Shown: piece by piece, positions 1 through 43,912 of the stretch
Numbering within the stretch: position 1 is the first letter of the stretch
Layout of the letters: each line of letters opens with the position of its first letter
NCBI GenBank assembly: GCA_030167865.1
Contig: JALAGF010004219.1
Location: forward strand, 1 to 64,000
DNA from: Craspedostauros australis
Taxonomy: Eukaryota
DNA: 64,000 nt
Direction: 5' to 3'
Program-made: the position numbers and the translations under genes
Notes under the pieces: model-generated
Told to the model about the DNA's origin: nothing
The model's database searches: none
The model's input: only the letters and a program-made list of their open reading frames with translations

Positions 1-3000
1 TTTGGACACAGAGACATCATCTGGCGTTTGCTGGGATTCGATCCCGACAACGTGTGTGCTCGCATCCAAAACAACGATGGGAACACGCCCCTCCACCTGG
101 CCTGCCGCAAAGGTTACAGAAACGTGGTCAATACGTTGATTCAATCCATCCACAACAACAGCACAACCAATACCGCTGTCAGCATCGACATCAATCTTCA
201 GAACAAGAACGGTTGGACACCGCTACATTACGCGTGCCGAAAGCGACACAAGGATGTGGTTGAATACTTCCTGCACCTCAATCGCAACGACAGCCATATC
301 CATGCCAATTTCGACACCAAGGACCACCTTGGCAAGACGCCGTTTGAATGCGTTGCAGAAGGTGACGAGGAGTGGATCCGTTCTTTGGTCGCATCCTATC
401 TGGTCAACCAGGAAGGGCGCACCTCGTTCGCTGGCAATGATGAGAAGAACACCGCGCTTCATCTTGCCTGTTTATCAGGACTTCTAGAAGTGGTGCGCGC
501 TCTCGTCGAATCCACCAAGATCTCGGTTGATGCCAACGCGAAGAATAGCCTGGGGTACACAGCATTGCATTATGCGTGCCAGAAAGGACACACAGATGTG
601 ATCGAATACTTGCTACAGTCCGATCGTGTGAGCACGACGTTCGACCTCTCCATCCAGAACACGGATGGAGATACACCCCTCCACCTTGCCTGCTGGCGCG
701 GAGCCGAAGAAATTGTGCAACTCCTGTTGAGAGAGAAGCGACAACGAACTGACATCGATATCAACGTCACCAACAACAAAGGCAACACGCCTTTGCATTA
801 CGCTTGTTGGCGCGGTCACACAGGCGTAACGAAGAATTTGATCGAGTCAGAGACACCCGTCATCAATGTGAATGTTCAAAACAACCATCTGGACACGCCG
901 CTTCACCTCGCTTGCCGGTATGGACACAAGGACGCGGTGGAATACATGACAAAGTCACAGATTGCCAAAGTGAACCTCGATGTCCGCAACAGATTCGGAA
1001 ACACGCCATTCCATGTCGCCTGCGTATCTGGACATGAAGATCTCGCCAGGTTTTTGGTGAATTCGCAACAACTCAACGTTGACATCGAAGCTGAGAACAA
1101 GAACAAGAATACGCCGCTTCACAGTGCCTGTCGTCGTGGGCACGATGGCGTTGCCGACTTCTTGCTGGGGCTCGATCAAGGCACCAGCAACGGCGGTGGC
1201 GGTGGCAACGCACCCAACAACAACGGAAACACACCGCTGCATGTTGCGTGCCGGCATGGCAAGAGACATGTGATCGATCGCATGCTGCAGCATCTTCAAG
1301 AGAAGGTGGATGTCAACGCGAAAAACAAGAACGGAAACACGCCGTTGCACGTCGCCTGTTGCCACGGACGGATAAATGCGGTCCAGGACTTGATCCAGTA
1401 CATGTTCGAATGCAACGACTGCAAACCTGTTGATATCAATACCCCAAACAACAAGGGATATACGCCACTGCACTATGCCTGTCGAAACGGCCACATCGAC
1501 GTCGTGAAACGCCTCATCGAATCGGATCAAGCCGACGTTAACGTCAACATGCAAGACAAGAATGGCGATACGCCAATTCACCACGCGTGCAGGAAACGGA
1601 AAAGGAAGGTTGTTCAATGCATGATGGAATCTGATCAGGCCGATATTGATCTCAACATCAGCAACTCTCGGGGCGATGTCCCGCTTGGTGTTGTTTGCAA
1701 CAACAGAGACGCAAGTCTTGCAGAGCATCTCATCAAGTTGAAAATAGCTGGAATTGACTTTGACTCAAGCAGACATGGGCAAATGAACATCGTTGACCAC
1801 CTCGTGCCATCAAAGCAAATCCACATCAATATCAATATACAAGACGAGCATGGGTACACGCCGCTCCATTACGCGTGCCAGTATGGGCACAAGGAGGTCG
1901 TCGAATTCTTGTTTGGATTTGGCGAGGACGCCGTCAACTTCAACATCGGAAACACGAACGGCGATTCACCTCTGCATCTGACATGCCGATACGGACAACT
2001 CCTTGTCGTTCAATGCATGATTCAGTTGGATGTGAACCGTAGAATCGATTTTGGCATCTTCAACAACAACAGGTGCACGCCAATCCACCTTGCATGTGAG
2101 AACGGCCACCGGGCTGTGGTTGAGTGCCTCGTGGAATCGCGTCGACAAGATATTGATCCGAATTTACATGACCACAACCATAACACCCCTCTTCATTTGG
2201 CATCCAGCGGCGGATACTGGAAGGTGGTTGCGCACCTGATGGAATCCAGTTGGATCAATGTCGATGTCGTTGCCCGTAACTTGGATGGCGACACGGCGCT
2301 TCATGTTGCTTGCCAACACCAGCATATCAAAGTGGTGCAATACATTGTGCAATCGAGTCAGGCAAACGTCCGCGCCAGTGTCAACGTCAGAAACTTCAAC
2401 AATGGAAACACACCATTCCATGATGCCTGCAGTTCTACGCAAATCGACGTCGTTCGTTGTTTGGTGGAATCAGACAAGCCCAACATCGATATCAACGCCC
2501 GCAACGACAAAGGCGAGACAGGACTGTACCTTGCCTGTTGGTTTGGGAACATCCCGGTAATCAAATACTTGCTCGGCGTGGATTCAGTTGGCACCAGGGT
2601 TGACGTGACCATCTCCAACAACGATGGACGCACGCCATTGCACATAGCGTGCCAGCAAGGCCACAGGAGTGCGATTAAGCTCCTCGTGGAATCCAATCTG
2701 GAGGCTATCAACACCATCATCAACAGCCAATCAGAACAAGGCGACACCCCCCTTGACCTCGCTTGTCAATACAGACGCAAAGACGTGGTCGAGTACTTGA
2801 CAGGTCTGCGTGGCAACGGCATCAACATACAATATGAGGACACGCCGCTGCACCATGCGTGTTGCCGTGGCCAAGTAGAGACCGTTCAGCATCTCATTGA
2901 GTCCGTTGGATTCAATACTGATCTCACGACCACCGATGGCAGAACCGGGCTCCACTGCGCTGCTCGCTACGGACAAGACGAGACCGTGCAGTATTTGATC

Positions 3001-4713
3001 GGCGCAGCCAATATCAACATCAACATCAACGCCCAAGATAATGACGGGAACACCCCGCTGTATCTTGCCTGCCGGGAGTATGATCCGGGATTCGTCGACG
3101 GCCATTGGGAAGTCTTTAACCTGCTCTTGCAACAACCGCAAATCGATGTCAACATCGTCAATCAACAGCACCAAACACCGCTGATGGAAGTATGCAAGCA
3201 GTACACACCCGAGAGTGGGTACGTCATCTTCATCAGAGGACTCTTGAACGCAGGCGCGGACGTCAATATCGCAGATGGCGACGGCAACACGCCGTTGCAC
3301 ATCATCTGCCAGGGCGGATACTTCAAGATCTTCACAGACCTGGCTCGTGCACAGGGCATCCAAATGGATGTTCGGAACAATGCTGGCCAAACGCTGCTGC
3401 ACATCGCTTGCAGCAAGCAAGAGTCCTCGGATCTGGACTATACGGGAGGCGACGACTGCCAGTACTATGCCATCATCCATCACCTTCTGGAGAAAGTGGG
3501 CATCTCCGCCAATGATGAAGATAACGAGCGCAACACGCCACTACACTTCATGTGCTCTGCCGAATATGCGTGTGTTGATGGAATCCGGCACCTTGTGAAG
3601 AAATGGCAAGCTCGTGCTAACGTCACCAACAGTGCTGGTCAAACTCCATTGCACCTTGCATGCATGCAAGGGAATCTCGAGGTGGTGAAATTTTTTGTTG
3701 GGGAGACAGATGTGGGCGCGGACGACCCGGATAGCGCGGGCCAGACCCCGTTGCACTTTGCGTGCGTGCGCGGACGCGTTGAGGTGGTGAAACATCTGGT
3801 TGAAGAGGCAAATGCTGATATCAATACTCAAGACCAGCAAGGCTACACACCGTTGCTCCTTGCCTGCGGATATGAACGGCTTCATGTGATCGAATATCTC
3901 ATCGCACAAGCCAACCTTCACATTGATGCTCGGTACAGTAACGCAAGCACGCTGTTGCAAGTCGCAGCAGCTCGTGGGCACCTTGACGTGATGAAACGCC
4001 TCCTCGAGCTTCCAAACGCTAACATCAATGTCCGGGACGCCCTGGGACACGCACCTCTGCACTTTGCGTGCGCGAGTGGGCACCTTGATATTGTAGAGTA
4101 TGTGACTAAAATTGAAGGTGTCGATGTCAATGTCCAGAATAGTGGGGGCAACACCCCGCTGCATCTCACCATCCAGTGCTATCGTGATGAGAACAATGGA
4201 AGCTACAGAAAGATACTCAACATCTTGGTGAACACAAGGCAGATCAGAACCAACCTGACCAATAGGAGAAACGAGACTCCGTTGCTCATCGCGTGCAAGA
4301 TATTCTCGGCTGTCAACGACATCTTTGCCGTTGTCATCGAAGTGTTGGTGAAAGAAGGCCACGCAGATGTCAACATCGTCGACATCGATGGCTACGCGCC
4401 TTTGCATGTTCTGTGCTGGTACGGGCGTCTCCAGATGGTGCGAGATTTGATCAACACGCCAGGTGTCCAAGTGGACATGAATATCCGGAATACGTACGAC
4501 TGGAGGCCTCAGGATGTTGCTGCGATGAGAGGACATGCTGAGTTGGCAGAGTACCTCATATCATTGCAACCAGCGCAGAGCGAAGAGCAAGCTGGACGCT
4601 TCCATCGTGGAGACAACAGCGCTCAGGAGGACGGGGTCAATACGTGGGAGCATGTGGGTCACGTGGCTCCTGAATCTGCCAATTCCAGGAGCACAGGTTT
4701 TGGAACTCCCTGA
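1..4713 (+). CDS. Very long ankyrin-repeat protein (5'-truncated by the window edge)
   Basis: Frame is open from base 1 (FGHRDIIWRLL...) to TGA at 4711-4713. Dozens of tandem G-x-TPLH-x-AC...G...VV..L ankyrin repeats; no intron needed. Confidence 0.93.
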   Translation, partial: FGHRDIIWRLLGFDPDNVCARIQNNDGNTPLHLACRKGYRNVVNTLIQSIHNNSTTNTAVSIDINLQNKNGWTPLHYACRKRHKDVVEYFLHLNRNDSHIHANFDTKDHLGKTPFECVAEGDEEWIRSLVASYLVNQEGRTSFAGNDEKNTALHLACLSGLLEVVRALVESTKISVDANAKNSLGYTALHYACQKGHTDVIEYLLQSDRVSTTFDLSIQNTDGDTPLHLACWRGAEEIVQLLLREKRQRTDIDINVTNNKGNTPLHYACWRGHTGVTKNLIESETPVINVNVQNNHLDTPLHLACRYGHKDAVEYMTKSQIAKVNLDVRNRFGNTPFHVACVSGHEDLARFLVNSQQLNVDIEAENKNKNTPLHSACRRGHDGVADFLLGLDQGTSNGGGGGNAPNNNGNTPLHVACRHGKRHVIDRMLQHLQEKVDVNAKNKNGNTPLHVACCHGRINAVQDLIQYMFECNDCKPVDINTPNNKGYTPLHYACRNGHIDVVKRLIESDQADVNVNMQDKNGDTPIHHACRKRKRKVVQCMMESDQADIDLNISNSRGDVPLGVVCNNRDASLAEHLIKLKIAGIDFDSSRHGQMNIVDHLVPSKQIHININIQDEHGYTPLHYACQYGHKEVVEFLFGFGEDAVNFNIGNTNGDSPLHLTCRYGQLLVVQCMIQLDVNRRIDFGIFNNNRCTPIHLACENGHRAVVECLVESRRQDIDPNLHDHNHNTPLHLASSGGYWKVVAHLMESSWINVDVVARNLDGDTALHVACQHQHIKVVQYIVQSSQANVRASVNVRNFNNGNTPFHDACSSTQIDVVRCLVESDKPNIDINARNDKGETGLYLACWFGNIPVIKYLLGVDSVGTRVDVTISNNDGRTPLHIACQQGHRSAIKLLVESNLEAINTIINSQSEQGDTPLDLACQYRRKDVVEYLTGLRGNGINIQYEDTPLHHACCRGQVETVQHLIESVGFNTDLTTTDGRTGLHCAARYGQDETVQYLIGAANINININAQDNDGNTPLYLACREYDPGFVDGHWEVFNLLLQQPQIDVNIVNQQHQTPLMEVCKQYTPESGYVIFIRGLLNAGADVNIADGDGNTPLHIICQGGYFKIFTDLARAQGIQMDVRNNAGQTLLHIACSKQESSDLDYTGGDDCQYYAIIHHLLEKVGISANDEDNERNTPLHFMCSAEYACVDGIRHLVKKWQARANVTNSAGQTPLHLACMQGNLEVVKFFVGETDVGADDPDSAGQTPLHFACVRGRVEVVKHLVEEANADINTQDQQGYTPLLLACGYERLHVIEYLIAQANLHIDARYSNASTLLQVAAARGHLDVMKRLLELPNANINVRDALGHAPLHFACASGHLDIVEYVTKIEGVDVNVQNSGGNTPLHLTIQCYRDENNGSYRKILNILVNTRQIRTNLTNRRNETPLLIACKIFSAVNDIFAVVIEVLVKEGHADVNIVDIDGYAPLHVLCWYGRLQMVRDLINTPGVQVDMNIRNTYDWRPQDVAAMRGHAELAEYLISLQPAQSEEQAGRFHRGDNSAQEDGVNTWEHVGHVAPESANSRSTGFGTP

Positions 4714-16363: not shown

Positions 16364-17012
16364 GAGAGAGAGAGAGAAACGAGATTCGATGAATTGCTAT
16401 CGAGCCACTCCACGCAGTTTTGCATCAGTGATTTAGAATGTACGTGAGCAGAGCATAATAGAGCGAAGTGATCTGTCCAAAAGTTCGCCGTGGGTTAGTT
16501 GTTCAATGTAACAGCCGTGAGTGTGGGCGCGGGTGCGATCTGCTACTGCCGATCGCGATGGTTTGCCGATCAATCCTCGTCTATCGTGCCCTTGTTTGTG
16601 GATCTCACTTAGTCCCTTCGTCTTTATCGCAGTAACGACACGACCGCGTTGTATCCTGGCACATCACGGGGTTTTCCCTCGTGTTTGCGATTGCGATGGC
16701 TGCGATTGTTCATTCCAAGCGGCCGCTCTCTCTCTGGAGTGACCACCCATGCGCCTCCTGCCGTTCCTCCTTTGGCGTACATATCCAAGGTGGTACCCAA
16801 GGTGGCATCCAAGGTGATCACGTCAAGAAGTACACACACGTCGTGCCGTTCGCTTCGTTGCTGTCTTTCGTTCTATTTCTTCCTTCCATCCTGCTCGTCA
16901 TGCTGAACTCTCCATGTAAATACTAGCATGTGCCTCCATTCCTTCCTTCCTTCCGTCGTTCCCCATTTTCGTTCAGACCGCTGCATCGCGGCGCTCTGAT
17001 CGTCTCCATTCT

Positions 17013-17652
17013 CTATTTCGATTTCGTGGGCGCGTTTTCCTGACGTGCCGCATCTTGCAGCAGCTCCGTGTCGACGTGCTCTGGCGGGATCTGAATATAC
17101 CGAATGACGCTGCCTCGCACGAAGCAGTTCTGCAGTGCGCAGAGCTGCGGGTACTTGTCGGGGTTGACGATCTTGACATTCATGAGCTTGACGTTGAGGT
17201 ACTGGTCGACGCTGTGCAGCGTGCCCGTCATGACGACGTCGTTCTTCAGTTCCACGGCGATCTCCTTGCCCACGAGGGTCTTGAAGAAGGAGAGGAAGAT
17301 CTGTGGGGTTCCATTTGGTTCGATGATAATCGGTGCGATGATGCAGGGTAGGATCGTGCATGTCGCAGTGATTTCGTTGTCGGTGTCGTCGATGTTGTCG
17401 ATATCCATGTCAATATCATCAAGAAGACAGAGATGGACGAGGAGGAGGACGAGATGAAGTGTGAGAACAAGTGCTTCATTGTGCTTGGAGGTGGTTTAGT
17501 GATTGGCGGCTGATTGACGACTTCTTGATGCGATCTCCATGTCTGCAAAGCACCGATCAAGCGTACCCGTACTTGCAGGTCGGTTGTGCGGAATGTAAGC
17601 GATGCTTGTCCATCAGCCGCCTTCCGCAATGGCACAAGTGGAGACTCACCAT
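17013..17652 (-). CDS. LSM2: U6 snRNA-associated Sm-like protein LSm2; exons 17652-17650 (ATG only) and 17300-17013
   Basis: IFLSFFKTLVGKEIAVELKND...GTLHSVDQYLNVKL...NCFVRGSVIRYI...DTELLQDAAR. Minus-strand ATG|GTGAGT donor at 17649 and CAG acceptor at 17301. Confidence 0.93.
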
Positions 17653-17983
17653 ATTCCGATTCAAAGGTGTTATAGTTATGCGTGGTAGTATCTGTCGGTT
17701 CCGCTTTCCCACGAAGGATCTTCAAGGATTTGCGAGGCGAGTGATGCGATGTGATGTGATGTGAATGGGGTCTTCAAGTGGATGGTTGATTGCTCAGAGT
17801 TGGTGGGGATTCCTCAGCAATTCGGGCCTTGGGCGCGGGATGGGTTTTCGTGGTGGGAGGATGTGTGGATGCCAGATGCGGTTGTTTTTGTTGGGTGGTT
17901 GTGGGTGGAGATTGCTGAACGAAGTCCATTTGATTGATTAAGTAGCATAATTTCGCCAGGGAGAGTTGGAAAAGCACTGAAAC

Positions 17984-18063
17984 AGCCCAAGGTCGTGGGT
18001 TCGACCCCCATCTGGAGCATCCATGTGCTCTTGTAACTCAGTGGTCAGAGTGTGGGTCTTATG
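17984..18063 (+). tRNA. Circularly permuted tRNA-Ile(UAU): 3' half (pos 38-73) at 17984-18019, 7-nt spacer, 5' half (pos 1-37) at 18027-18063
   Basis: Rejoined sequence GCTCTTGTAACTCAGTGGTCAGAGTGTGGGTCTTATG|AGCCCAAGGTCGTGGGTTCGACCCCCATCTGGAGCA (73 nt) folds into a full cloverleaf: acceptor GCTCTTG/CTGGAGC, D stem ACTC/GAGT, anticodon stem TGGGT/GCCCA, T stem GTGGG/CCCAT, TTCGA loop. Anticodon TAT at 18060-18062. Confidence 0.92.
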
Positions 18064-18070
18064 AGTGCTG

Positions 18071-18103
18071 TTTTGCATGAGCGTCTTTTCGCTCCCTCTT
18101 TTT
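18071..18103 (+). terminator. Candidate RNA polymerase III T-run terminators for the permuted tRNA
   Basis: TTTT at 18071-18074 right after the trailer helix, then a GAGCG/CGCTC hairpin and TTTTT at 18099-18103. Confidence 0.5.
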
Positions 18104-19379
18104 GTGGCGGCAGATTGATATCACGCTGACTTTGTCTTGTCGGCAACAAGCCCCCTCTTTTGTTGTTGAGAGTTGAAGGCATCGCCCCAAACATGCCATA
18201 GTTTATGTCTTATAATAGTTCCATTGCGATATTGCTCTGCGTGCGCGCCGAGGAGGAGACTTTCCAGAGAACTTGAGAGACTATATATTTTGTAGAATAT
18301 TTGTAGTGTGAGATCTCGTGCTCAATCTTTATCGCAGAAGGGATCACTCTTTGTTGTCTTCCGCCCTGAGGCGATTGCCGTGCTGCGCGCAACTTTGGAA
18401 TCCTCACGTCGCTGCTCTGCGACGCAAGGAACCTCGCCCAGGTACCACCCATCTCCTGCCTTGGGCGTTCCATCATCACACGGCGCGAGAATTCTGCTCC
18501 TTCGTGGCTTCTCGGTTTCGAGAATTGTCGAATCTTCCACTTCATGCCTTTTCGAGAATTGGCGCGAGTGTTCCTGGTCGACTCATACGACTAACGGACC
18601 CACAATTCTGGTTGATGATGTACTTCTGTGTGGAGCGTCACAGCCATCGCACTTTTGGGAGGTGGACAGAAGAACGAGAGAAGTTCTCGATTTGGTTGAC
18701 ACATCAACCTCAGAATCATCCACGATCGTCGTGGCGATCATCATCACGGCTCCCTCGTTTTGTCATTACCTGTCCCTCGTTGTGTCTCACGTTGAGCTGC
18801 ATCCACACACGCAGTCACATAAACAAAGACGTTCCGTCCCCTCCCTCCTGCTGCCGATCCCCCCTGTTCACGAAATCGAGAGCGCCACCCAACTCGACGG
18901 AGGCAGAGGCCGTCCAACTACGCACATTTGGTCACAACCACGCTACTGGTAATTTGCAGGACGTGTTGCACACAGACACGCACATTCTCCTTCTCAGCAT
19001 TGAGTGCGTGGCGCATTCCACCAAGTCATCACCGTTGCTATCATCATCGCGATTTGCAACGACAACACCACCACCATCGTTTCAGGCATCGTCGGTACCG
19101 CCTGTGCCAGCAGAGAGGCCAAAGCAGAACCATCAGCATCAACAGAATCTCTTCATCGAACTCTGAAGAGGAATCGGTGATTCGGTTGACACAACAACGA
19201 GACCGCCCTCCGACCCAGGATTCCTCAATCACCAACATTCCAAAGAACATTTCTGACGGAGCAGTGTGAGATAACCCTCCTCTGCTCGACTCCAAGCCAC
19301 TCTACGCCATCCTATCGCATCCCATTATACTTCATATTACACGAATCTTCTGCGGTCGGCAACACCCGCAACACCCAAG

Positions 19380-22075
19380 ATGAGACCGCCATCCATCTCG
19401 GCGACCATGCTCTGGTGCATGTGCACCATGGCGCCACGGTCCTCCGCTTTCCTGGGGACGCGAGCAACCCGCAGGAATCCGCACACGCAATCGCAGCAGT
19501 ACCCATCACAGCTGCATCAAAAACAGCAGCAGCAGGAACGACAGCATCACGGGCTATGGCAGCTGGGACAGCAGCAACTCTCGGCGATTGATTCCAAGCA
19601 ACTCAGATTCTTGGATGATACACGGATCAAATCTCAGGAGGCCAAACAAGTGCAGCGGCAGCAGGCAGAACAAGATGGAGATGACCAGGAGCTGTCGCCG
19701 TTGACCGGCGCCGCCATCTCATCATCATCGCAGTTACAAGCGCACACGCATTCGCTGGCGCAGACTCAACCTTCCAGAATAATTCCCAACGCATCCGTCA
19801 ACCAGCTGCTTGGCACTGACATTGGCACGGCCAGCAACGATACCCACGCCGACTTTTTCGAAAGCAACGACGGCGAAATCGACGAACTAGCATTGACGAT
19901 GCTATCGAATCATCCCAAGCAAGCGTACGGACCGTCGTTGAATCTAACGGACGATGAGAGAGACCTCTTTCGCCTGCTGAGAGAAGCAAAGCAGAATACC
20001 AACGTCTCCACAACCCTTCGCGTTGCCGGCGGCTGGGTTCGGGACAAACTCCTGGCAACTCCAGAATTCTCCCAGCCATTGGCGGAGCCCATCGTCGAAC
20101 GCCTCACCTCCAAGTTCAAGGGATCGACGGGTGGGGCCAGTCTGGGCCGGCAGGGCACCAAGGTCCTGTCGGCGAACAGCATCGCGCCCGTAGACATCGA
20201 TATTGCACTCGATGACATGCTCGGCCGGGAGTTCGCGGACCGGCTCAATGAGTACCTGTCGGGGAAGGGAGAAGAGACGATCAGCGTCGGCGTGGTGCTC
20301 AAGAATCCAGAAAAGTCCAAGCATCTGGAGACGGCCACAATGAAGGTCGGCTCCTTCTGGATCGACTTTGTCAACTTGCGCGCCGAGCAGTACGCGCAGG
20401 ACAGCCGCATCCCCGATCTCATGCGCATCGGCACGCCAGCCGAGGACGCCTTCCGCAGAGACTTGACCATCAACACGCTGTTCTACAACATCAACAACGG
20501 CATGGTGGAAGACTGGACGGGACGCGGCTTTCATGATCTCCAGAGAGGCGTCGTCGCCACGCCGCTGGCTCCGCTCACCACCCTCCTGGACGACCCGCTG
20601 CGCACCCTGCGGTCGGTTCGCTTTGCAGCGCGCCTCCGCTTCACCATGGACGAAGCCTTGCTCGACGCCGCCAAGAACAGCCGCGTGCGTCAGGCCTTGG
20701 CCGAGAAGGTCTCGCGAGAACGCGTGGGCGGTGAGATCGATCTCATGCTGCGCTCGCCCGATCCGGTGGGCGCCATGAGGCTCCTCATCAACCTGCAGCT
20801 GGTCACCACGGTCTTCCCCACCGAGGGATTGTTCGCTTTGGAGGAAGGCAAGGACGCGGACATGTTCCGCTCCGGCCTTGACCTCCTCTCCACGACGCAC
20901 GACCATCTGTGGGAATGCCAGCTGAAGCCGCCGGTGTGGTGCGACTCCAAGAAGTCCTACACGACGCACGGCGTTGACGAACGCACGCTGATGCAGGACG
21001 AGGAAGCACGGCGGTTGTTGTGGTACGCGGCATTCCTCAAACCGCTGTATGACCACGCTAGTAGCCTCCCCACCAAAGCCAAGAGCGCGCGGCAAGGCAA
21101 GAAGGCCAAACGGTCCATCACCTGCAAGCTGCTCGTGGATGAGCTCAAACGGCCCGTGCGCGACGCCGAGGCGATTGAAAAGATCATGAAGGCTGCTGAC
21201 GATTTTGGCGTTTTGTTCGACAGCGGCTGCGATCTTTCCGCGGTCTCCATCCTTCTCAGCAAAATTCGGGTCGCGGATGAACCGACGCAGAGCGACGAAC
21301 AGCGGAATGGGGTTCCGGACCATGTGTGCTTCATGAACGGCCGTGAAGTCAGCAGCACGCAGGAGGAGGATCCCGTGTGGAAGCATGCGATGGAGTTCCG
21401 GCTGCTCTGTTCCAAGGTCATGAACCGAATCGGGCCGCTCTGGAGAGCAGCGCTGCTGCTGTCGTTGGCGGAAGAGCTCCTGAACATCGAGGAGGAACTG
21501 GATTACACCATCGAAGGTGACGTTGTACGTGCCATCATATCATCATGCATGAACGTGGATATGCAGAATGCCCGAAAATTGCACGGAGATGTCAGGTTAT
21601 CGTTGTGTGCGTCTTCTTTTGTCTTGAGTGGTCCTCTACGGATGACATGTACGCTGCCATCTCTCACCCCATTTCGGCCCTCTTGTGTATTTTTGCGCTG
21701 TGCTGCAATTGGTGCTCCACGTATGAATGGTATTGCATGATTGCGGCGGACAACTGATACTGATGCAATAAACTCGCACACACTGATATGCGCACAACGC
21801 AGTTCCACGAAAGCAAGATGGAGCGCCGACAGGGCATCATCGATCGGTACAACGCGTTCGCGGTGGCGCTGCAACGCATAGGCCTCGTGGGTATTTGGGG
21901 TGAAAAACCGCTGATGGATGGCGGCAGCATCAAGAAAACCCTGCCGTCGATACCCAAGGGACCAGCCTTCCGCGATGTCATGGACGAGCAAACGAATTGG
22001 ATGACGGCGCATCCTGGTGCGCACATGGAGCTCCTGCAGGAGCACCTGGAAACGACATTTGCGGAGTACCGATGA
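19380..22075 (+). CDS. CCA1: tRNA nucleotidyltransferase (class II CCA-adding enzyme); exons 19380-21524 and 21803-22075
   Basis: LRVAGGWVRDKLL, DIDIALD, KHLETA, IDFVNLRAEQY..DSRIP, GTPAEDAFRRDLTINTLFYN, LDDPLRTLRSVRFAARL, KVSRERVGGE. Intron GTACGT(21525)..GCAG(21802). Exon 2 has KPLMDG and KGPAF..VMDEQ..W. Confidence 0.92.
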
Positions 22076-40703: not shown

Positions 40704-43700
40704 ATGGCCACGCCACCAGCAGCTGCGGCTGTGTTGCCGGTCGCCTCCACACAAGGACCAGCTGCGGTGTCATCCATGCCCCCAACATCATCGCAGACGG
40801 TGACTATCCGGGTGCTTGCCGCCAGCACGGGCCTTTCCTACACGATACCTTTGCACCCGGCAGAACTCACGTGAGTGGCGCCCACTGTTTTCGTGCTCAT
40901 CGTTGCCACAAGAGCCGCGAGGAATAGCATCTCGCATCTGAACGACCCACGATTGGTGTTGCTAGCGTTCCTGTTCCTGTTGTTGCTGCTGCTGCTGCTG
41001 CTGTTGCTGCTGACCACTAGTATGCTGGTTGATGATGCTGTGCTCTCGGCAAACCAAAGCAGGAGGCTGACTGCCAGAGAAATTGGGCATCGCATTGCAT
41101 TGCACTTTTCCGTTGAACGAAAGATCTGTTCTTCCATGATGCAAAGCGATGCAATCGCTTACAAAGCAACTGCGACCATCTAGGTTGTCACGTGGTCACT
41201 GCCACCTTGCTACTACAAGGAGCGTTGCCATCCTCTTCGTTGTCACATCTAACATCTGACCTCATCCTTCTGTTCTCTTCTCCTTGCTCTCCTCGCCAAC
41301 ACCGGTCGTTCATGCCTCGATCTTCTCGTGTGCTTGGTCCCACGGTACCGAAATGGTATCTCGCGGCTTCCACTTCGCATCCGGCTTGCTTCGTTTCGCT
41401 TTGGCGGCGTGCCTCCGACTCATCCGCTCCGCACGACCTCCGCCCATTCGCGATACCACACCACACCAACAGCGTCGCCAATATCCGCGCTCACTTGGCG
41501 GCCGCAGTCCCGACTTCGGACCAGATACTGCTCTTGGGTCCGCCGTATAAGGTGCCCAAAGACAGCACGTTGCAGTCGGAAGAAGTTCTGAATTCCTTGA
41601 GACTCGGCGACGCAGAAGACGACCCAGCTGCTGTCGCGGAAGATGCCACCAACAAGCCCGACGGAGCGAGTGACTCCAGAGAACGACGAAAGACCCACCG
41701 CCAGTTGCTCACCAACACAGAACGTACAGGCGCCCGCAGACTTTTCTTGTTTTCCAAACGTGCGTTGTCCGAGAACGCGCCGGATCCAGCGCCATGCCGG
41801 CTGGAACCGAACGAGATCGTTTTGCCAACTGACGTGCCCGGTAGCACCGCACTCAACATGACCCAATCTGCCGCAGCCGCCCAGCCTCTGCACCATGCCC
41901 TTGTGGCATACGAGCGCCAGTTCGTGCTCTTCCTCGCTCAAGGCAGAGTTCTGGCAGATGGAGCCGATATGCGCCTCACGGCTTGCCGACAGTGCGTGCA
42001 GGAGCAGGCCATCATGGCCAGAGCGCTGCGTGCGGCCGTCTCCAACCTCTCGGATCACTTCAATGGCGCCACCAGGACACGATCGGGATTCTCATCGATG
42101 TTCCAGTCCAAAATTGCTTCACATTCGGCGTTGCTTCAGAAGTTTGAATCCGTGCTGTCCAACCTTGGCACCATTCCCCTGCATCCATCGCTCGTGCAGA
42201 TCGCTCGCGGTTCCGGCAGGATCATGGAGACGCTGCTCGACACGGTGCCCGTCGAACAGGAACGCGCATGGGCGCAGCAGTGCCAGACTTCACACCAGCG
42301 TCTCCTGTCGTTGTACTCGGAGTTGGAGACCACCTTCTCTCGGCTGGGATCTCCGTCGTTGCGGGAGGAAGAAACCCGCAAGGACTTGCTGACGGAGGCT
42401 GAGATCCAATCTCTATCGGACGAAGTGGGGACAACTTGCCAGGGCATTCGCGACAGACAGGCGAAGCGGCTGGAAGAGCTCACGAGAGATCACGGGAAAG
42501 TGATGAAGATTGTGATGGATGCGCTCAATGATGATGGAAACGCGACGGGCGCCGTGAGCGCCAAGGTCCAGAACGCATTCACGCCCTTGCAGGAGCTGTC
42601 TACCACATCGCAGCAACTGATACCGGCGATGGAGGCCGATGATAAGCAATTCCAAACACTGATGCTGAAGGTGGCCAACGCGAAGACGGACATCATGCAA
42701 CGGATGAAGGTCCGGCTGCGCGAGGTGAGCGTTGCCCAGTCGTCCATCCAAAGAATGCTGTCCAGCGTCGGGGTCCTCAAGGATGCCTTGAATCGCCAGT
42801 GCGAAAACATGGCGCACCTGGAGCACGTGGCCGAACTCAGCTCGTCCTACAAGGACTTCCTCAGCGAGTTGAAACGACGAAAGGCTTATGGGCAAGCCGT
42901 GGTTGCGTCGTCCACAGCCATGGTGGAGCGTCTTGCGTTGATGCGATCCGATGAGGTGAAGTCACGCGAGAAGTTCCTCAGAGGAACGGGCCGGCACCTC
43001 ATGCCACCGTTCTTCGAAATCTTCGTCCCAACGCTGGCCACCCCGCCACCGCTCTTCACACCCCAAATTCCAGCTCTTGCCGAGACCGAGATGCTGCCGG
43101 ATATCGCATCGCCTGAAAACCCTGAGGGAACTGATACCTCCATGATGGGTGGCCAGGAGGGCGGCATCAGCAGCGCATCGTCCCTGACCGCCGAAAGCAG
43201 CCAGCCCCAACCTGCCGACAAAATGTCTCACATCACAGCGACCACCGCCGCTACGGCAACAACAGCAGCCGACGCAGCAGTGCCAGAGACCGGAGCTCCA
43301 GCCGGTGCTGCAGCGGCGCACAATCCAGACCAGCTCATCGTCAGCGCTGATGAAACATCCGCTAACGACGATGTCATCATGGATCCAGGGACTGGCGCGG
43401 CGGACGAAGCTGAGAGGAAGACGCTGGCTTACGAAAATGAGATGCTTCGACAGCAAATTGATCAGCTTGGCGGAAAGGCACCGCGTTCGTACGTCGACGT
43501 TTCCGCATCAAAGGCCAGCGCGAACATGGCGGAGATGGATTCGCTGCGGAAACAGCTGGAAGGCATGACAGCACGTGCGCAGAGAGCTGAAAAGGAGCTT
43601 GGTTTGAAGATGGCGGAGCAGTCCAAACCAGATGACAAGATCAGTCACTCCAGCCTGTCCATAGGCGACGTGGCTCTGTTCATGCCAACGGGTCAAGACT

Positions 43701-43912
43701 CCGGTGGCAAACGCCGTTACTTGGCCTTCCACACCAGCTGTCCGCACCGGTACTTGTCCAGGGAAGGAATCGAGGGCAATCCCGACTTCATCGTAGGGCG
43801 CATCATCTATCAAGAAGAAAAGACCGCTCAGGATAAGGATCCATTTGGTTTGCACACTGGGATGAAGTACCACGTGCTCACGGTGGAAGTGCTGAAATCC
43901 CACCAGGGATGA
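40704..43912 (+). CDS. ATG11: Autophagy scaffold ATG11/RB1CC1-like; exons 40704-40870 and 41473-43912
   Basis: N-terminal ubiquitin-like segment (VTIRVLAASTG...|VANIRAHL..VPTSDQILL), Atg17-like helical region (QARALRAAVSNL-type motif, ELKRRKAY), coiled coil and C-terminal claw (KISHSSLSIGDVALFMP..YLAF..CPHRYL..FIVGRII..PFGL..YHVLTVE). Intron GTGAGT(40871)..ACAG(41472). Confidence 0.88.

Follow-up and report, generated by a model that had tools for sequence, protein, structure and literature searches.

A probable circularly permuted tRNA-Ile(UAU) gene with a bulge-helix-bulge-type junction in the diatom Craspedostauros australis

The first 64,000 nucleotides of contig JALAGF010004219.1 of the diatom Craspedostauros australis (GenBank assembly GCA_030167865.1; hereafter the window, numbered on its forward strand) carry a circularly permuted gene for tRNA-Ile(UAU) at positions 17984-18063 (+), where the tRNA's 3' half is followed by a 7-nt spacer and then by the 5' half, with the junction at 37/38. 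The gene order, the cloverleaf formed by the joined halves and the pairing of the flanking sequences are accompanied by conservation of the whole arrangement, with covariation, in relatives from environmental DNA. It is probable, in our view, that this is a functional nuclear gene whose transcript is matured by bulge-helix-bulge (BHB) splicing and by way of a circular intermediate.

In the raw 64-kb window no tRNA was detected by ARAGORN, nor by Rfam at the gathering threshold. When 18027-18063 was joined by script to 17984-18019, ARAGORN recognized a 73-nt tRNA-Ile with anticodon TAT, normal D and T arms, and an acceptor stem with one U.U mismatch and one G.U pair. Under permissive settings the Rfam tRNA model gave partial matches only, of 19.1 bits (18027-18083) and 13.6 bits (17936-18019); matches over the region to the Rfam models CRISPR-DR65, YrlA and snR67 fell far under the gathering score and were taken as chance. 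The locus thus combines the traits of a circularly permuted tRNA gene, namely the inverted order of the halves around a short spacer, a joined cloverleaf with a sense anticodon, and BHB-type pairing at the junction (Table 1). Further tRNAs were not found in the window, either by ARAGORN without and with introns or by Rfam at the gathering threshold and at E <= 5.

Table 1. Coordinates of the permuted tRNA-Ile(UAU) gene, its bulge-helix-bulge motif and its candidate transcription signals in the window.
Feature	Position	Strand	Remarks
TATA-like A/T-rich stretch CATAATTT	17946..17953	+	31-38 nt upstream of A38; candidate promoter element, by analogy with Cyanidioschyzon merolae (PMC3978253)
Outer helix h', leader strand AGCAC	17973..17977	+	Five Watson-Crick pairs with 18065-18069; homologous columns covary
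Central helix H, leader strand TGAA	17978..17981	+	Opposite C32-A35; U-A, G.U and A-U pairs plus an A.C mismatch
3-nt bulge A-C-A38	17982..17984	+	Predicted 3'-side cut C17983/A17984, from the geometry
3' half, positions 38-73	17984..18019	+	Anticodon-stem 3' strand, variable loop, T arm, acceptor 3' strand, discriminator A; tRNA-Ile(tat) by ARAGORN once joined to the 5' half
Spacer TCCATGT	18020..18026	+	Bridges position 73 to position 1; CCA not encoded
5' half, positions 1-37	18027..18063	+	Acceptor 5' strand, D arm, anticodon-stem 5' strand, C32 U33 U34 A35 U36 G37; ARAGORN on the joined halves; partial Rfam tRNA match
3-nt bulge U36-G37-A	18062..18064	+	Predicted 5'-side cut G18063/A18064, from the geometry
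Outer helix h', trailer strand GTGCT	18065..18069	+	Pairs with 17973-17977
TTTT	18071..18074	+	Candidate RNA polymerase III terminator, immediately past the outer helix

The junction motif had been proposed in an initial annotation made from the letters of the window, and the bases and coordinates quoted there are all present. The leader reads A17973 G C A C17977, T17978 G A A17981, A17982 C17983 and then A17984 (= A38), and the trailer side reads C18058 T T A18061 (= C32-A35), T18062 G18063 (= U36 G37), A18064 and G18065 T G C T18069. In the proposed register AGCAC/GTGCT forms five Watson-Crick pairs, the bulges TG^A and AC^A fall as described, and the central helix has a single C.A mismatch, between 17981 and 18058 (position 32), with three of its four positions paired. 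In this register the sequence can be drawn as an hBHBh' arrangement, with two 3-nt bulges on opposite strands between two flanking helices, one (h) being the five-pair anticodon stem and the other (h') the five Watson-Crick pairs of leader and trailer. An AAA/TTT extension beyond a bulged G, also claimed for the outer helix, appears in the minimum free energy fold as well. By cloverleaf numbering the predicted cuts lie at the canonical 37/38, as for a substrate of a eukaryote-type tRNA-splicing endonuclease. With the anticodon side held fixed and 200,000 random leader/trailer pairs drawn from the window, at least five Watson-Crick outer pairs arose in 0.11% of cases, at least three of four central pairs in 12.3%, and both together in 0.0135% (1.35e-4).

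Relatives were sought in metagenome contigs with a pattern constrained only at CTTAT and in the T and D loops, so that both the stems (acceptor and anticodon) and the flanks (leader and trailer) could vary freely. The scan gave at least 123 matches in at least 117 loci; among the matches listed, 13 were permuted Ile(TAT) genes, 105 were contiguous tRNA(TAT) genes, all of them ordinary genes lying downstream of another tRNA, and 5 were unclassified. The permuted copies, at least 13 in number, come from 12 loci (L027, L028, L058, L062, L063, L076, L078, L097 with two copies, L102, L105, L112 and L113). As L105 duplicates L062 exactly and L113 duplicates L028, 11 distinct copies remain, or 12 with the window. 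Locus L047, which continues into a contiguous tRNA, and the unclassified L010, L066, L081, L101 and L111 were left out; L066 was rejected as a candidate, having a phage-type DUF3310 neighbour, no G37/A38, one central pair and no outer pair. ARAGORN called tRNA-Ile(tat) in all 12 distinct copies once the halves were joined and in none of them in genomic order. Spacers in the relatives measure 5-14 nt, G37 is found in all 13 permuted metagenome copies, and A38 followed by GCC is invariant across the 12 aligned copies. That G37 is an oddity for the reader of a codon starting with A is rejected, because 25 of the 105 contiguous tRNA(TAT) genes among the matches listed carry it too; G37 instead of A37 is common among the UAU-anticodon tRNAs of environmental DNA.

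The 12 distinct copies were aligned (alignment A1, window plus 11 metagenome copies) and pairs were counted for both the cloverleaf and the BHB motif. Over the whole structure 88.1% of cells are paired, as against 75.9% after shuffling, and 15 pairs are altered on both sides, neither value being reached in 500 shuffles. Both-side changes affect four pairs of the acceptor stem and two of the anticodon stem, the latter (h) having its five pairs intact in 100% of cases in the 12 copies; compensatory changes in these two stems, which exist only in the joined molecule, reveal selection on that molecule. Compensatory changes in the outer helix of relatives had been set beforehand as the test of the proposed pairing, and all five pairs (columns 10-14/109-113) have changed on both sides. 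Taken alone, the outer helix has 71.7% of its cells paired, as against 44.2 +/- 4.7% in shuffled alignments (0/500) and 30-50% in slid registers, and its covariation score is 0.682 compared with 0.218 after shuffling (0/500). Its variants include AGCAC/GTGCT in the window, AACAC/GTGTT in L058, GGCAC/GTGCC in L112, AACT/AGTT in L028 and AACC/GGTT in L097. Leaders also match their own trailers better than those of other copies: the mean duplex energy is -8.13 kcal/mol for cognate combinations versus -5.41 kcal/mol for the 132 non-cognate ones (permutation p = 0.00055), and the mean fixed-register run is 3.08 versus 0.97 pairs (0/20,000). With no structure supplied, RNAalifold predicted the cloverleaf stems together with four outer-helix pairs (columns 11-14/109-112). 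These results agree with the view of the initial annotation that flank complementarity marks a selected, functional gene and not a chance rearrangement, and covariation across the 12 copies likewise supports the hBHBh' geometry at the 37/38 junction.

Signals that may delimit a transcript accompany the gene. Runs of T act as terminators of RNA polymerase III. In all 12 copies a run of at least four T starts 5-27 nt past G37, always beyond the trailer strand (a count unscored against chance), and some 25-50 nt upstream every copy has stretches rich in A/T, as judged by eye and likewise unscored. By analogy with the permuted tRNAs of Cyanidioschyzon merolae and of prasinophytes, RNA polymerase III would produce a single transcript consisting of leader, 3' half (38-73), 7-nt spacer, 5' half (1-37) and trailer, ending in the T run. 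Leader and trailer would pair with each other and with C32-A35, rebuilding around 37/38 a BHB like that of an anticodon-loop intron; the tRNA-splicing endonuclease would cut each bulge behind its second nucleotide (17983/17984 and 18063/18064), and a tRNA ligase would link G37 with A38 into a circular intermediate. From this circle the spacer would be excised by RNase P and tRNase Z, after which CCA would be added. This pathway and the BHB at the junction have been described for permuted tRNAs (PMC3978253), and PMC4090602 states that homologues of Trl1-type ligases occur in diatoms.

The genomic setting indicates that the permuted gene is shared among distant diatoms. An LSM-domain gene (17013-17309, -; Pfam LSM, E = 5.4e-16) lies directly upstream of the tRNA and divergent from it. 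A transcript contig of run X1, 100% identical to the window, joins 17300 to 17650 across a 349-nt GT..AG intron of this gene (17301-17649, -), which with its intron occupies 17013-17774 (-). The same LSM gene is found about 350 bp from the tRNA in L028, where 95 aa can be compared at 80% amino acid identity, and L076 retains a piece of it (27 aa, 89%) no more than about 1.8 kb from its tRNA. In L076 an ATG11 gene (2530-4068, -), 40% identical to the ATG11 of the window, lies about 450 bp from the tRNA; the closest relatives of this ATG11 that carry a name belong to diatoms (Ditylum, Seminavis and Epithemia, 42-47%). The best named relatives of the window's gamma-tubulin are also diatoms (Cylindrotheca, 78% identity; Nitzschia, 79%; Fragilariopsis, 82%). 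The LSM and ATG11 neighbours and the diatom affinity of L076 together argue that the permuted gene is common to diatoms that are far apart. L058 was assigned by Atlas to Eukaryota (score 0.90), and a homologue search for it gave seven unnamed proteins. In the window ATG11 (41192-43912, +) lies 23 kb from the tRNA; its linkage to the tRNA in the window and in L076 may be a loose conserved linkage with rearrangement.

Several observations weigh against a functional gene processed through a strict BHB. With ViennaRNA, and one background shared by all structures, the strict BHB reaches -26.9 kcal/mol, an open junction loop -29.9 kcal/mol, and a 6-bp outer helix (with U17978-A18064) plus one isolated pair -32.6 kcal/mol; the U17978-A18064 pair favoured by the energy model removes the 5'-side bulge. 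Of the fold expected for this region, the outer helix was thus recovered and the strict BHB was not. RNAalifold does not predict the central helix either. At position 32 the window has A17981 opposite C18058 and not a G-C anticodon-intron pair, and in yeast the 3' cut requires such a pair, between nucleotide 32 and the third nucleotide before the 3' cut (PMC3978253). In four of the 12 copies (L027, L062, L063 and L076) the outer run in the fixed register is at most two pairs with G-U allowed, and leader and trailer pair only via shifted or more distal helices. Acceptor-stem non-pairs recur, at 6-67 in nine of 12 copies (U.U in the window) and at 3-70 in seven of 12. Close relatives occur among the copies (L028/L097, L063/L102 and L058/L112); because several copies are so related, the shuffle statistics are inflated and their independence is overstated. 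Placement among diatoms from proteins is limited to the window and L076. Finally, the single transcript contig that run X1 gave over 17000-19200 spans 17000-17300 and 17650-17774 and ends before the tRNA, which is neutral on its expression. Shuffled sequences match the entire precursor in stability (z = -0.18), a value that carries little information for a tRNA.

The best-surviving alternative, one that we regard as unlikely, keeps a functional permuted tRNA and supposes that the strict BHB is not the recognized feature: the leader-trailer helix would merely hold the ends together, and a eukaryote-type endonuclease would measure 37/38 from the tRNA body by a ruler mechanism, or other nucleases would trim the ends before ligation. 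Eukaryal endonucleases have indeed been described with a ruler mechanism at 37/38 (PMC3978253), and the preference of the energy model for an open loop or a longer outer helix, the recovery by RNAalifold of the outer helix without the central one, the missing G-C32 pair of the window and the shifted helices of four copies all fit this proposal. Against it, a leader motif able to pair with C32-A35 persists across the family, with 81.3% of central-helix cells paired versus 19-65% in slid registers (shuffling is uninformative here, as variation is possible on the leader side only), and G-C32 is present in 11 of the 12 copies, the window being the exception. The spacing between outer helix and junction moreover suits 3-nt bulges in eight of the 12. 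We describe the motif of the window as somewhat relaxed, an A.C replacing the G-C32 of the other copies, and we retain BHB splicing as the preferred reading, where the central helix would require the enzyme, or conditions beyond the energy model, to form.

That the locus is a pseudogene, a decaying remnant of two tandem tRNA-Ile genes whose flank complementarity is a functionless relic of former introns, seems to us very improbable. In its favour, the published model for the origin of permuted genes is a tandem duplication after which the outer halves were lost (PMC3978253); the U.U mismatch and G.U pair of the window's acceptor stem and the end of the X1 contig at 17774, short of the tRNA, could also be taken in this sense. 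It is opposed by the retention of the arrangement in 12 distinct copies, by the compensatory changes in stems unique to the joined molecule and the covariation of the outer helix, by the T run past the trailer helix in every copy, and by the synteny of the loci in divergent diatoms. UAU is, in addition, among the anticodons missing from a tRNAscan-based survey of Phaeodactylum tricornutum (PMC7678280), so that diatoms may need a hidden permuted gene. Least credible of all is that the halves are transcribed separately and joined in trans like the split tRNAs of Nanoarchaeum, with no permuted transcript or circle; this is a formal alternative for any two-piece gene, with no observation in its favour, and it sits badly with halves lying 5-14 nt apart on one strand, with a window spacer free of T runs while a T run follows the trailer, and with a leader that pairs with the trailer and not with the spacer.

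Two features of the family deserve mention in their own right. The non-pairs at 67/6 and 70/3 (A1 columns 50/76 and 53/73) describe a conserved imperfect acceptor stem, not random decay. Locus L097, 713 bases long, holds two permuted tRNA-Ile(TAT) genes in tandem, about 160 bp apart, whose leaders and trailers differ and which both retain the 4-bp outer helix AACC/GGTT; the gene is thus multi-copy in some organisms.

Permuted tRNA genes were described in C. merolae (Soma et al., 2007, reviewed in PMC3978253), and the gene of the window resembles the type II (37/38) genes of that alga in having the 3' half upstream of the 5' half, a short spacer, no encoded CCA, an A/T-rich element upstream, a T run downstream and a leader-trailer BHB at the junction; its 7-nt spacer is as short as the shortest one tabulated for C. 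merolae (PMC3978253, Table 1). It differs in its host, which is a diatom and not a red alga, and in its identity, Ile(UAU) being absent from the 34 permuted genes of that table; the C. merolae tRNA-Ile(UAU) gene has three introns and is not permuted, according to PMC9602550. A circular intermediate has been demonstrated in C. merolae; for the gene of the window it is predicted. With the permuted genes of prasinophytes (Ostreococcus, Micromonas) and of the Bigelowiella natans nucleomorph it shares the 37/38 junction (found in all but one of those listed), short spacers and a motif suited to a eukaryote-type endonuclease (PMC3978253). The junctions of those genes are, however, of the hBH type, whereas the present family usually adds an outer helix h' of 4-5 bp, and no Ile gene is among them, the isoacceptors being Ser, Leu, Cys, Arg, Asn and iMet. 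Archaeal permuted tRNAs (2011, PMC3218864) likewise have a permuted order and a BHB-type junction, but differ, as described in PMC3978253, by a junction at 59/60 in the T loop, an encoded CCA and an archaeal endonuclease.

The arrangement also recalls the intron-containing tRNA-Ile(UAU) genes of eukaryotes, as leader and trailer occupy the place of the 37/38 intron and pair with C32-A35. It departs from them in having its 'intron' broken open and its exons in exchanged order, so that splicing would yield a circle and not a linear joining of exons. In yeast, the anticodon pseudouridines of tRNA-Ile(UAU) reportedly require the intron. Ginkgo tRNA-Ile(TAT) genes carry classical introns, as recorded in PlantRNA 2.0. 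An origin from an intron-containing ancestor, as suggested by the initial annotation, would fit the published model of duplication and loss (PMC3978253).

In 2014 the 34 permuted tRNA genes counted came from one red alga, four prasinophytes, one nucleomorph and one archaeon, and the corresponding table includes no Ile(TAT) and no gene from a diatom or other stramenopile (PMC3978253). A 2025 preprint adds Auxenochlorella to the hosts; the part of a 2026 review that could be consulted names permuted tRNAs for red algae, green algae and the B. natans nucleomorph only (PMC13578239); and PlantRNA 2.0 annotates two heterokonts, with permuted genes unmentioned in the accessible part of its description. 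The literature searched, whose scope excluded most subscription journals and Maruyama et al. (2010), contained no mention of a permuted tRNA from a diatom or any other stramenopile, and the absence of an earlier report is accordingly provisional. The type of gene is already known, because a leader-trailer BHB is a defining trait of known permuted tRNA genes; the window adds a further gene of this type, from a lineage for which none appears to have been reported.

Permuted tRNA genes are rare, and a conserved diatom case would extend them to a lineage that is dominant ecologically and has secondary plastids. A broader proposition, possible and in our view somewhat doubtful, is that diatoms encode tRNA-Ile(UAU) solely as a permuted gene inherited from their common ancestor and lying beside the LSM gene, that other missed tRNAs are perhaps hidden likewise, and that diatoms are a new lineage using circular intermediates. 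A conserved permuted gene would explain why UAU is reported missing by surveys of the tRNAscan type and would warn that the tRNA sets of diatoms are under-annotated. The P. tricornutum set lacks, besides UAU, anticodons that include GCA, UCU, UGG and UAA, tRNA-Cys being absent entirely (PMC7678280, Table 2), and hidden permuted genes would account for these gaps; if the proposition is true, the tRNAs that may be hidden in this species would be those for Cys(GCA), Arg(UCU), Leu(UAA) and Pro(UGG). Permuted genes for Cys(GCA), Leu(TAA) and Arg(TCT) are in fact known in prasinophytes, and Pro(TGG) is not in Table 1 of PMC3978253. It would further follow that diatoms, and perhaps more stramenopiles, form a new major eukaryotic lineage maturing tRNAs via circles, and it would then have to be asked whether the trait was inherited from an algal endosymbiont or arose independently. 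The 12 natural variants of the leader-trailer BHB offer material for studying how eukaryotic endonucleases recognize substrates without introns, and since Phaeodactylum and similar diatoms are transformable, the circular-intermediate pathway would be open to genetics.

The surrounding window has a G+C content of about 51-59% (2-kb windows), and its long open reading frames (ORFs) include ankyrin repeats, EMC1, ATG11, gamma-tubulin, translin and the LSM protein. Among the 17 large window ORFs scanned, none matched the families of Sen2, Sen34, Sen54 or tRNA ligase. ORF 19380-21740 (+) contains a PolyA_pol head domain (PF01743, E = 1.6e-22) with its RNA-binding domain; the PF01743 family includes CCA-adding tRNA nucleotidyltransferases, and the position of this ORF 1.3 kb downstream of a tRNA gene without CCA is probably a coincidence. 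At the edge of the window, ORF 28-4713 (+) encodes 1561 aa consisting almost entirely of ankyrin repeats (22 Ank_2 stretches) and extends past the 5' end.

Two of the unclassified metagenome loci have features of their own. In L010 (-, match 135-195) only 3 nt separate the T arm from a following acceptor 5' strand, which pairs at 7/7 positions with the upstream strand, and an upstream GCGGG complements CCCGC of the anticodon stem; a second kind of permuted tRNA may be present here. In L111 (+, about 301-377) ARAGORN finds adjoining tRNAs for His and Gln, each with a 31-nt intron, which form an array of intron-bearing tRNAs with a repeated stretch inside or beside the two.

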